From Promethearchaeota archaeon (GTDB taxonomy: Archaea; Asgardarchaeota; Lokiarchaeia; Sigyniarchaeales; SOKP01), in NCBI GenBank assembly GCA_048937405.1, contig JBHLNF010000009.1, positions 139,096 to 203,095 on the forward strand: DNA of 64,000 nt, written 5' to 3'. The position numbers and the translations under genes are program-made. Positions 9,547 to 10,968 of this stretch are shown one piece after another. The notes under the pieces were generated by a model that worked only from the letters and a program-made list of their open reading frames with translations, ran no database searches and had not been told where the DNA came from. Position 1 is the first letter of the stretch, and every line of letters starts with the position of its first letter.

Positions 9547-10968
9547 ATGGATTCTGAAACAGAAGAATTACTTATAAATATAGCAAATAAAGCACATTTA
9601 GATGAGGGTATCGAGGGAATTAGATCAATACTTCTAACTATGTATCGCTTTCCTTTTCTTAAAAATAAAAAAGTATCTCAAAAAACGGGAATTGCGATTC
9701 CCGCTCTTGCGGCTGTTAGAGGTGAATTAGTAAAAGCGGGTATAATTGCAGATAAAGTTTTTCTCGGAGAGAAGGGAAAGATATGGGTTACAAAGAATTT
9801 AAATTTAACTTTCGATTATGATCCTTTTCCTAATGGAATTAATTTTGATCTAGATGATATTCCAGAAGAATTTTTATATTTAAAAGAGATAGAAAGCCAT
9901 CTAAAGGAACGACCAAGAGCAGAATATGCTCTTGATCAATCACATGCAAACTTAATGACGATTTTAAAAAGAACTTTCTATTTGATTAAAAAAGGTGATA
10001 TTGAAGGAAGAAAAATAATTTTTCTCGGTGATGACGACGCAACTTCGATTGCAGTCGCGTTAACTGGATTAGCAAAAGAGATCACTGTTTTAGACATCGA
10101 TGAGCGAATTTTAGATTTTCTTTCCAATGTAATTTTACAAAAATCATTGAAAAATTTTAATATTGTTCACCATGATTTAAGAAATCCAAGTCCTAAAGAT
10201 ATTCAAAATAATTATGATGTTGTTATAATGGATCCTCCTTATACAAATGAGGGATTACGTTTATTTTTAAAGAGGGCTAAAGAAGTGCTTAAATCATACA
10301 TCAATATTAACGGAAAATTATATCCTATAAATGGAAAGAAATGTTTTCTATGTTTTGGAAATAAACCCCCGAATGATACATTAAAAGTACAATTATCAAT
10401 ATTAGATCACGGATTTATTCTCAAGGAAATGATTCCTAATTTTAATCACTATATAGGTGCAAGTATTATAGGACAATTTAGCCATCTTTATTACTTACAA
10501 ACATTAACAACTTCAAGTACTCCATTTAATTATAATTATGATTCACAACCACTCTACACTTCTGAATTAAAAAATGGAAGAAATATTTCTTTTCGACCCA
10601 TTGGATATCATTTCACAGGAGAAATGCGATTTAATTCTATTGATCTACTTATGGACAATAAAGCAATATTTCAAGCATTTCTAGAATCACTTACCTCAGC
10701 ATATTTAGCAATTGTTGATATTTATAATCATAATTACTATCCTTTTGGATATAGTGTGGTTGCAATATTAGAAACAAGTCATGCTGCTGTTCATACTTGG
10801 CCAGAACATGGATATGTCAGTATAGATTATTTTATATGTGATGAATTTCAGAAGGGAATAAAAGCTCTTAAGATATTAAAACAAATACTTAACCCAAAAA
10901 ACGCCAAATTCTTTTATATTGAACGTGGTAAAGAATTAACCGAAAGTTATAATCCTATTGAAATTTAA
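9547..10968 (+). CDS. bpsA: branched-chain polyamine synthase (BpsA-like) fused to pyruvoyl AdoMet decarboxylase (SpeD/SpeH-like) proenzyme
   Basis: LDQSH, GDIEGRKIIFLGDDDATSIA, DPPYT (BpsA); C-terminal GYSVVAILETSHAAVHTWPEHGYVSIDYFIC (AdoMetDC). Confidence 0.85.
   Translation: MDSETEELLINIANKAHLDEGIEGIRSILLTMYRFPFLKNKKVSQKTGIAIPALAAVRGELVKAGIIADKVFLGEKGKIWVTKNLNLTFDYDPFPNGINFDLDDIPEEFLYLKEIESHLKERPRAEYALDQSHANLMTILKRTFYLIKKGDIEGRKIIFLGDDDATSIAVALTGLAKEITVLDIDERILDFLSNVILQKSLKNFNIVHHDLRNPSPKDIQNNYDVVIMDPPYTNEGLRLFLKRAKEVLKSYININGKLYPINGKKCFLCFGNKPPNDTLKVQLSILDHGFILKEMIPNFNHYIGASIIGQFSHLYYLQTLTTSSTPFNYNYDSQPLYTSELKNGRNISFRPIGYHFTGEMRFNSIDLLMDNKAIFQAFLESLTSAYLAIVDIYNHNYYPFGYSVVAILETSHAAVHTWPEHGYVSIDYFICDEFQKGIKALKILKQILNPKNAKFFYIERGKELTESYNPIEI

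Follow-up and report, generated by a model that had tools for sequence, protein, structure and literature searches.

The gene described here lies at positions 9547..10968 on the forward strand of a 64,000-nucleotide stretch of DNA (hereafter the window) from a Promethearchaeota archaeon of the Lokiarchaeia (GenBank assembly GCA_048937405.1, contig JBHLNF010000009.1, positions 139,096 to 203,095). It is a real, intact and conserved bifunctional gene, in which a BpsA-like aminopropyltransferase is joined through a linker to a class 1b S-adenosylmethionine decarboxylase (AdoMetDC). Its product is probably a bifunctional proenzyme, which would cleave itself between T410 and S411, decarboxylate S-adenosylmethionine (SAM) and, with the help of a GDDD loop, transfer the aminopropyl group of the resulting decarboxylated SAM (dcSAM) to an amine. 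The name branched-chain polyamine synthase should not be applied to the fusion. Asgard archaea, to which the host belongs, are the closest prokaryotic relatives of eukaryotes, and to our knowledge polyamine synthesis in these organisms is essentially unstudied. Here we present the evidence for the architecture of the fusion, its predicted function, its distribution and its gene neighbours.

The open reading frame (ORF) starts with ATG, encodes the whole proenzyme of 473 aa and has no internal stops. A Pfam scan of the 473-aa protein placed PF01861 (BpsA_C) at residues 114-317 (153.3 bits, E 9e-45) and PF02675 (AdoMet_dc) at residues 355-461 (82.4 bits, E 4e-23; cut-off 25), and the NCBIfam equivalog TIGR03330 (SAM_DCase_Bsu) was matched at 83.4 bits against a cut-off of 75.65, whereas PF01564 yielded 13.3 bits only. 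The nearest solved structure by sequence was BpsA of Thermococcus kodakarensis (5xnc, E 7e-26, query positions 51-307), followed by AdoMetDC of Thermotoga maritima (1vr7/1tlu, E 1e-13). An AlphaFold2 model computed with 75 homologues has a mean pLDDT of 89.5 and consists of two well-folded modules and a low-confidence stretch at residues 323-349. In Foldseek, BpsA structures were the best matches for the first two thirds of the model (E about 1e-19 to 1e-20); the last domain matched T. maritima AdoMetDC (1tlu) with a TM score of 0.87 and a root mean square deviation of 1.5 Å over 114 columns. Pfam, TIGR03330 and the motifs all agree with the first-pass annotation, made from the letters alone, which had proposed one 473-aa ORF with a BpsA core (LGDDD, DPPYT) and a C-terminal class-1 AdoMetDC. 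Two misjoined genes or an assembly artefact were considered and ruled out: the architecture recurs without interruption in more than 300 homologue clusters from independent assemblies, which makes a missed stop or a false join of two genes very unlikely.

Four segments, all on the forward strand, make up the protein. Residues 1-105 (9547..9861) form an N-terminal helical, winged-helix-like domain common to the whole BpsA family (alignment A1; the alignment to T. kodakarensis BpsA, Tk-BpsA, begins at residue 51). The helix-turn-helix-like N-terminus pointed out in the first-pass annotation is thus present, but it is the ordinary N-terminal domain of all BpsA-family proteins, solved structures included; the HTH_24 match within it was weak (E 0.033), and the Foldseek alignments to BpsA chains cover about 345 columns, N-terminal domain included. 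The Rossmann-fold aminopropyltransferase core (PF01861) comprises residues 106-322 (9862..10512) and was recovered by Pfam, the 5xnc alignment, AlphaFold2 and Foldseek. It is followed by the low-confidence linker of about 27 residues (323-349; 10513..10593; pLDDT <50), which carries a conserved LYTSE motif and occupies the place of the BpsA C-terminal segment. The class 1b AdoMetDC domain (SpeD/SpeH-type) takes up residues 350-473 (10594..10965), as delimited by Pfam, TIGR03330, the T. maritima alignment and Foldseek.

The predicted self-cleavage site, T410↓S411 (10774..10779, forward strand; the arrow marks the bond), is placed by the alignment of S411, the residue that would become the pyruvoyl group, with Ser63 of the T. 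maritima enzyme, and the motif reads ILE-T410↓S411-H. The Ser411 codon begins at base 10777, and both this coordinate and the predicted length of the pyruvoyl alpha chain, 63 aa, agree with those given at the outset; the predicted chains are a beta chain of 46.8 kDa (residues 1-410) and an alpha chain of 7.4 kDa (63 aa, residues 411-473). All essential residues of T. maritima AdoMetDC are matched (Glu11 by E359, Ser55 by S403, Ser63 by S411, His68 by H416, Pro71 by P419 and Cys83 by C431), and the processing and catalytic residues H416, P419 and C431 lie within 10792..10839 (forward strand). The roles of the Ser, His and Cys residues were taken from PMC10407285, which also reports a Pro conserved throughout bona fide AdoMetDC; from the alignment we take P419, the proline of the HTWPE block, to be this residue. 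The sole departure from the essential site of T. maritima is Thr410, which replaces Glu before the pyruvoyl Ser. The motif (K/E/Q)(T/S)↓SH was found in 120/120 of the closest homologues, with Thr at position -1 in 119 of them, and canonical E↓SH is present in other Asgard fused proteins of the same clade and in all stand-alone Asgard SpeDs read.

The variant motif ET↓SH had led to the suggestion of an arginine or ornithine decarboxylase. According to this explanation, the SpeD-like domain would be a neofunctionalised pyruvoyl enzyme (SpeDC/SpeDA) that supplies the diamine acceptor instead of dcSAM. The suggestion is sound in so far as E-T↓S is likewise the motif of the validated SpeDC halves in the fusion proteins from Desulfotignum and Omnitrophica (PMC10407285, Fig. 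S5), and Thr is one of the four SpeDC-diagnostic residues (Gln, Thr, Phe, Tyr) around the processing site given in the same paper. Read against the motifs of Fig. S5, the placement of Tyr being left aside, Thr(-1) alone is matched: Gln(-5) is Ala406, the G-H-F block of SpeDC is V-H-T-W-P in the fusion protein, and the AdoMetDC-type S-H...H-T-W-P-E, including the HTWPE proline, is kept in place of S-L...G-H-F. TIGR03330 is matched above its cut-off, fused Asgard proteins of the same clade have the canonical motif, and the genome already contains a pyruvoyl arginine decarboxylase (PdaD) and no other AdoMetDC that could feed a GDDD transferase. We therefore regard a SpeDC or SpeDA function as very improbable. 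Because the HTWPE block is kept, the other SpeDC residues are absent and the genome has PdaD and no other AdoMetDC, the domain is read as an AdoMetDC with a clade-specific variant at position -1, whose activity is predicted.

Two observations on fused relatives concern the same site. The SpeD domain of one Asgard-clade representative (P0126, 478 aa) is degenerate and its Ser/His pair is gone. Members of a separate fused clade of 417-445 aa (P0175, P0179, P0248, P0264, P0265, P0242, P0220) read S-N-S-N-L-x-x-H-T-W-P-E in place of E-S-H.

Regarding the transferase domain, the residues were compared with Tk-BpsA, with the numbering of the latter taken from 5xnc alignments and mapped through alignment A1, i.e., by sequence alignment. 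In Tk-BpsA, the GDDD loop spans Gly157-Asp160, with Asp159/160 holding the aminopropyl group of dcSAM, while Asp225, Glu259, Tyr290 and Tyr316 surround and activate the acceptor; an acidic cluster in the flexible C-terminus (Glu339, Asp342-Glu345) serves as aminopropyl carrier and governs product branching, and short diamines are poor substrates (PMC12979288). The corresponding dcSAM aminopropyl-binding loop of the fusion protein is G161-D164 (10027..10038, forward strand), in which G161, D162 and D164 are invariant in alignment A1. Equivalents of three acceptor-site residues are kept in the alignment, namely D229 (Asp225), Y302 (Tyr290) and Y337 (Tyr316). D229 is the first residue of the DPPYT motif (D229-T233; 10231..10245, forward strand; at least 90% conserved in alignment A2), in which Tyr232 replaces the Glu of the Tk motif DPPET. 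DPPYT resembles motif IV of amino-methyltransferases, and the next-best folds after BpsA in Foldseek were METTL5 and PH1948. Y337 and T338, both within the linker motif LYTSE, are at least 90% conserved in A2. The alignment position of Glu259 is occupied by Lys273 (10363..10365, forward strand), so that the acid is lost; across the whole subfamily this position is K, R or Q. True BpsA orthologues end in tails of the type Y-(D/E)-(D/E)-E-E, whereas the C-terminal acidic carrier lid is missing from the fusion protein and the SpeD domain begins at that point.

The first-pass annotation had named the transferase BpsA proper (EC 2.5.1.128), which would convert spermidine to N4-aminopropylspermidine and N4-bis(aminopropyl)spermidine and would thus provide a mesophilic Asgard archaeon with thermophile-type branched polyamines. 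The best sequence and fold matches are indeed the BpsA proteins of T. kodakarensis and Thermus thermophilus (Tth), and GDDD and the equivalents of Asp225, Tyr290 and Tyr316 are retained. True BpsA orthologues exist in other Asgard families, however, and these score 330-346 bits to PF01861 over positions 1-241 and 405 bits to 5xnc, whereas the PF01861 match of the fusion, at 153 bits, covers profile positions 5-198 of 243 only, and in A1 the fusion protein shares no more than 23-26% identity with these orthologues. In transferase-domain trees (FastTree, IQ-TREE quick) the fusion falls into a large uncharacterised clade, and well-supported branches separate this clade from true BpsA. The Glu259 equivalent is Lys, the acidic carrier cluster that governs branching is missing, and neither SpeE nor carboxyspermidine dehydrogenase is found in the genome as a supply of spermidine. 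A true BpsA is accordingly an unlikely identity for this domain. The assignment to PF01861 with a dcSAM-type GDDD loop holds, membership in EC 2.5.1.128 is not supported, and the transferase is a member of a large, mostly non-thermophile, uncharacterised BpsA-like subfamily apart from Tk- and Tth-BpsA. The fusion fails the Glu259 and acidic-tail features. Its product is not inferable from BpsA, and with the carrier lid and Glu259 missing its catalysis must differ from that of Tk-BpsA.

The host genome (4.47 Mb in 29 contigs, scored 100% complete) contains one AdoMet_dc and one BpsA_C match, both in the fusion ORF. A true SpeE was not found in the genome with PF01564; the two matches obtained (35.8 and 24.9 bits) were rejected as a hidden SpeE, being generic class I methyltransferases. 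Carboxyspermidine dehydrogenase (CASDH) was likewise not found in the host genome, and the carboxyspermidine route was discarded, the only Sacchrp_dh_NADP match being a sugar epimerase/dehydratase and the two pyridoxal phosphate (PLP)-dependent decarboxylases being LysA and a LysA-like protein. Since the AdoMet_dc and BpsA_C matches are the sole ones and the PF01564 matches are generic methyltransferases, the fusion is predicted to be the genome's sole source of dcSAM and its sole recognisable consumer. The initial idea of a one-protein enzyme for dcSAM supply and use, predicted from sequence, is in line with this sole pair of intact pyruvoyl-site residues and a GDDD transferase. Cultured members of the Lokiarchaeia-type lineage are mesophilic, which agrees with the initial remark that the lineage is not known as thermophilic.

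Among further polyamine-related genes, the host genome has PdaD, an agmatinase-family gene and two deoxyhypusine synthase (DHS) paralogues. One DHS paralogue forms a divergent pair with PdaD (G000:C7:1025983-1027817, loci L005/L008), and the other lies beside the agmatinase-family gene on another contig (G000:C28:281525-283315, loci L006/L007); both arrangements are outside the window. The amines that the genome can supply as acceptors are plausibly agmatine, putrescine or homospermidine.

On these grounds, and by homology, the following mechanism is proposed. The C-terminal class 1b AdoMetDC domain would cut itself at Thr410↓Ser411 into the 46.8-kDa beta chain, comprising the transferase and the first half of SpeD, and the 7.4-kDa alpha chain, which would carry an N-terminal pyruvoyl group. 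The AdoMetDC domain, probably dimeric like other class 1b enzymes, would turn SAM into dcSAM; the BpsA-family domain would bind dcSAM at the GDDD loop, pass the aminopropyl group to an amine acceptor and free methylthioadenosine. With agmatine or putrescine as acceptor the product would be N1-aminopropylagmatine or spermidine; homospermidine would be an alternative acceptor, and the neighbouring acyltransferase may add an acylation step.

The phylum was sampled with 201 Asgard genomes from 27 families, which were searched for BpsA_C, AdoMet_dc and PF01564. Fused-length BpsA_C/AdoMet_dc ORFs (about 460-500 aa) were found in two of the 27 families, the host's own (f1) and one labelled Heimdallarchaeota at NCBI, in which 10/10 genomes carry them. 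SpeE was found in 0/10 genomes of the Heimdall family, and f1 yielded two weaker PF01564 matches only (117 and 93 bits), each from a genome that also has the fusion. Wherever a family has speD as a stand-alone gene, it also has a true SpeE (about 180-200 bits) and a BpsA or BpsA-like gene, and apart from the two weaker f1 matches true SpeE is restricted to these stand-alone-speD lineages. Locus L012 holds an operon of the order speD-speE-bpsA-like. As a separate gene, speD precedes the transferase gene, whereas in the fusion SpeD is C-terminal; because this order is the opposite one, the fusion is not a simple read-through of a speD-speE-bpsA-like operon.

In a sample of 60 genomes from the host's family the fusion occurs in 15/60 (11/33 of the high-quality ones), whereas DHS is present in 60/60, and several fusion-lacking genomes are scored 100% complete. 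The fusion behaves as a portable accessory one-gene module and not as a core pathway step; since most relatives without it keep DHS, it is not needed for hypusination in the family. PdaD was found in 48/60 family genomes, regularly adjoining a DHS paralogue. An arrangement of this PdaD-DHS type was described for the agmatine-dependent, dcSAM-independent SpeY/homospermidine route in PMC13625781, which also raises the question of whether DHS proteins of the agmatine-dependent and of the spermidine-dependent kind occur together in archaea; the family of the fusion host looks like a candidate for carrying both.

These counts bear on one version of the proposed function, namely that the fusion is the missing spermidine/N1-aminopropylagmatine synthase of SpeE-less Asgard archaea, replaces SpeD plus SpeE and feeds deoxyhypusine synthase. 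It would fit the sole aminopropyltransferase and sole AdoMetDC of a genome with two DHS genes, the supply of agmatine and putrescine by PdaD and agmatinase, and the fact that fusion-bearing lineages are without SpeE while stand-alone-speD lineages have it. The fusion is absent, however, from 45/60 family genomes, those of them in the phylum sample also being without SpeD and SpeE, even though all 60 have DHS; the family-wide PdaD-DHS adjacency fits the dcSAM-independent route (PMC13625781), and Tk-BpsA is poor on short diamines (PMC12979288). A replacement synthase is thus possible, and we hold it tentatively and with some doubt.

Several points weigh against the bifunctional proenzyme as a whole. 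The Glu259 equivalent and the ping-pong carrier lid are both absent, and the transferase activity may be weak or directed at an acceptor other than a polyamine. Thr instead of Glu at position -1 is a feature common to SpeDC ornithine decarboxylases. The many family genomes with DHS and without the fusion weaken the version with a replacement spermidine synthase. Family f5 has BpsA-like genes in 21/21 genomes and AdoMet_dc in 0/21; therefore some subfamily members live without a recognisable dcSAM source. Finally, a measured activity, autocleavage or product was not found in the literature for any member of the subfamily. Regarding f5 itself (e.g., loci L017 and L024; G074:C1:2457078-2457635), there are often two BpsA-like paralogues of about 390 and about 290 aa, and SpeE was found in 0/21 genomes; at L017 a PLP decarboxylase of the ornithine/diaminopimelate/arginine type adjoins the BpsA-like gene. 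The paralogues of f5 have either an unrecognised dcSAM source or another donor.

Beyond the Asgard archaea, a word-indexed search returned the fusion in at least 311 clusters at 90% identity. Among the matches listed, both domains and a length of 471-482 aa were seen in 120/120 clusters, for which the database name was only 'adenosylmethionine decarboxylase'. An exhaustive HMMER search of 1.84 billion representatives yielded 4283 relatives at E up to 0.001, among which the fused forms fall into three length classes. Named fused members were from Vagococcus fluvialis, Erysipelothrix spp., Lachnospiraceae and 'Odin-' and 'Heimdallarchaeota' metagenome-assembled genomes (MAGs). When one genome per species was scanned, further fused genes came to light in Hod-, Hermod- and Thorarchaeota MAGs, Eubacteriaceae, Bacillales and Clostridium, as well as Bacteroides propionicigenes, Phocaeicola coprocola DSM 17136 and B. 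stercorirosoris DSM 26884. Cultured mesophiles with a fused gene annotated only as adenosylmethionine decarboxylase include V. fluvialis (L027/L028) and Erysipelothrix sp. HDW6B (L029), and three of the loci (L073, L075, L080) are from human-gut Bacteroidales (Bacteroides/Phocaeicola).

On the transferase tree, the fused proteins split into three clades, each with support of its own, and the approximately unbiased (AU) test rejected a topology that unites them all in one (delta lnL 110, p 0.004), with groups that were defined once a first tree had been inspected. The several fused clades reflect either repeated fusion or fission, the two being indistinguishable here. The first-pass annotation had left room for the fusion being already common and described. 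Common it is, with the clusters counted above, but a description of a BpsA-AdoMetDC fusion was not found in the full-text literature, the coverage of which is mostly outside subscription journals, and a review of branched-chain polyamines from 2026 is silent on both fusions and Asgard archaea. The first-pass annotation had named SpeE-SpeD fusions as known and the BpsA-AdoMetDC architecture as not; in the literature found, SpeE-type fusions are validated. The BpsA-AdoMetDC architecture is not rare, as it is common in databases.

The gene neighbours were scanned with hidden Markov models built from earlier-found neighbours against 80 fetched loci, and examples were confirmed with Pfam. Neither polyamine genes nor lipid genes adjoin the fusion within the window. 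The gene on its upstream side (8449..9285, reverse strand) encodes a stand-alone E2-type acyltransferase (2-oxoacid_dh catalytic domain; PF00198, 87.8 bits; PDB alignment to E2 cores) with an H-x-x-x-D-G motif. At least 7 genomes of the genus have the two genes side by side, with the acyltransferase gene either directly after the fusion or upstream of it in divergent orientation; the adjacency is limited to one genus and a single inversion explains both arrangements. As a functional partner of the fusion the acyltransferase is a lead. It is intact wherever found in fusion-carrying genomes of the genus, and homologues with an in-frame stop were seen in four fusion-lacking family genomes (orthologues G065, G121, G213, G218), a small sample of non-independent genomes; these stops may represent decay after partner loss.

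In other lineages different partners recur. Heimdall/Hod-type fused genes always stand in a tight operon UbiA - fusion - CTP_transf_1 (CDP-archaeol-synthase-like) with gaps of about 10-20 bases (11 loci); loci with this order are L018, L025, L048-L052, L054, L055 and L058-L060. In three other Asgard fused lineages (<50% mutual identity) a phosphatidylserine (PS) decarboxylase homologue follows directly, and in two of them a CDP-alcohol phosphatidyltransferase is also present (L032:4001-7095, L034:2084-5204, L035:3620-5795; an ELP3-like radical SAM gene lies upstream in two of the three). Adjacency to PS decarboxylase does not hold as a general rule, because the gene never adjoins a BpsA-like gene in the phylum sample. 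Downstream of other Loki-type fusions a 232-aa ORF recurs that matches no Pfam family and is DUF8091-like in the ESM Atlas, which is uninformative. Bacterial fused genes usually have a GNAT acetyltransferase next downstream. In Actinomycetota, Alphaproteobacteria and Chloroflexia, separate speD, bpsA-like and GNAT genes are clustered at 16 loci (L087, L092-L095, L097, L099-L102, L104, L106-L108, L110, L113). Bathyarchaeia have a BpsA_C-GNAT fusion followed by speD, and BpsA_C-GNAT and BpsA_C-LPG_synthase_C fusions are found in other representatives; further entries of this kind are L068, P0136, P0139, P0200, P0268, P0206 and P0210.

By fusion or adjacency, speD is linked to bpsA-like genes in Asgard archaea, Bathyarchaeia, Firmicutes, Bacteroidales, Actinomycetota, Alphaproteobacteria and Chloroflexia, and this linkage across phyla argues, as good independent evidence, that the subfamily uses dcSAM. 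The linkage to acyl- and acetyltransferases suggests N-acylation of the product or of the acceptor; SpeG-like detoxification would explain it equally well. A further explanation is based on these neighbours: the acceptor would be the head-group amine of a lipid or another conjugate, and the product would be acylated to give a modified cationic lipid or an N-acyl-aminopropyl compound. It draws on the Heimdall/Hod-type operon with UbiA and the CDP-archaeol-synthase-like gene, on PS decarboxylase after the fusion in the three other Asgard lineages (two with CDP-alcohol phosphatidyltransferase), on the BpsA_C-LPG_synthase_C and BpsA_C-GNAT fusions and the GNAT genes after fused or unfused genes in many bacteria, and on the E2-type acyltransferase that adjoins the present gene. 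In the host's own family, however, PS decarboxylase was found in 0/40 genomes, the window has no lipid gene beside the fusion, and hydrophobic segments are absent from the protein (the Kyte-Doolittle mean over 19 residues reaches 1.5 at most); the acyltransferase is a neighbour in a single genus, in arrangements that one inversion accounts for, and the GNAT neighbours equally fit ordinary polyamine acetylation in SpeG-like homeostasis. We consider this explanation improbable for the present gene, and its more specific form, in which the fusion would aminopropylate an amine-bearing lipid or metabolite such as archaetidylethanolamine and a partner acyl- or acetyltransferase would then modify the product, slightly more so. 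The proenzyme that makes dcSAM and passes its aminopropyl group to an amine is retained as the preferred function.

Other genes of the window were found at 1322-3385 (reverse), 4068-5441 (reverse), 5446-6447 (reverse), 7812-8342 (forward) and 12140-13602 (forward). They include an IS200/IS605-type TnpB beside two pieces of an ICMT/PEMT-family membrane methyltransferase, an Asgard-typical Ras-family small GTPase, an Eco57I/TaqI-type restriction-modification methylase, and an ArsR-type regulator followed by an ARPP-1 domain protein.

Most sampled Asgard genomes are without the textbook SpeD/SpeE pair, and some Asgard archaea, Firmicutes, cultured gut Bacteroidales and others have a single-gene module that should make and spend dcSAM. 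Its transferase is from a family so far seen as a thermophile speciality, the non-thermophile branch of which is uncharacterised. The fusion serves as a 'Rosetta stone' which, together with the clusters of speD, bpsA-like and GNAT genes, assigns dcSAM-dependent chemistry to the BpsA-like subfamily as a whole, which has thousands of sequences. Should the product be spermidine, the fusion would represent a third, convergent solution for the SAM-dependent spermidine route; if it is branched, acylated or lipid-linked, known polyamine chemistry would be extended into mesophiles; and if the lipid or conjugate explanation holds, Asgard archaea and many bacteria would share a dcSAM-dependent class of cationic membrane or conjugate chemistry. 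The cultured carriers V. fluvialis, P. coprocola DSM 17136 and B. stercorirosoris DSM 26884 make the function directly testable. The finding is not surprising in principle, yet it concerns a widespread enzyme class that bears on the polyamine metabolism of the archaeal relatives of eukaryotes.

Compared with known systems, the fusion is similar to BpsA (T. kodakarensis 5xnc/5xnf/5xnh; T. thermophilus 6j27) in its PF01861 domain, in the combination of N-terminal domain and Rossmann core, which gives the best fold match, in the GDDD loop and in the equivalents of Asp225, Tyr290 and Tyr316. It differs from BpsA by Lys273 for Glu259, DPPYT for DPPET, a SpeD domain in place of the acidic lid, the lack of an accompanying spermidine synthase and hosts that are mostly non-thermophiles. 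With the class 1b AdoMetDC of T. maritima (TM0655; 1tlu, 1vr7, 3iwb) it shares the fold, all six site residues and a similar alpha-chain size, whereas its AdoMetDC domain is C-terminal to a transferase, the beta chain has 410 residues and Thr stands for Glu at position -1. The SpeD-SpeDC fusions of Desulfotignum phosphitoxidans and Ca. Omnitrophica OLB16 are similar in that a class 1b SpeD is part of a larger self-processing fusion, the SpeDC half of which reads E-T↓S; their partner, however, is another SpeD homologue and not a transferase, and the Gln and G-H-F-type residues of SpeDC are absent here. For AdoMetDC-aminopropyltransferase fusions of Ca. Pelagibacter, a delta-proteobacterium and Ca. 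Krumholzibacteria both activities were shown experimentally, and animal spermine synthase is derived from bacterial fusions of the AdoMetDC-SpeE type (PMC11107197, PMC12803844). As in the fusion described here, the maker and the user of dcSAM are in one polypeptide in the Pelagibacter-type proteins, but these consist of an N-terminal AdoMetDC and a C-terminal SpeE-type PF01564 domain, whereas here the order is reversed and the transferase is the non-orthologous PF01861. Because the domain order is reversed and the transferase is not orthologous to the SpeE type, the BpsA-like/AdoMetDC protein is an independent, convergent fusion.

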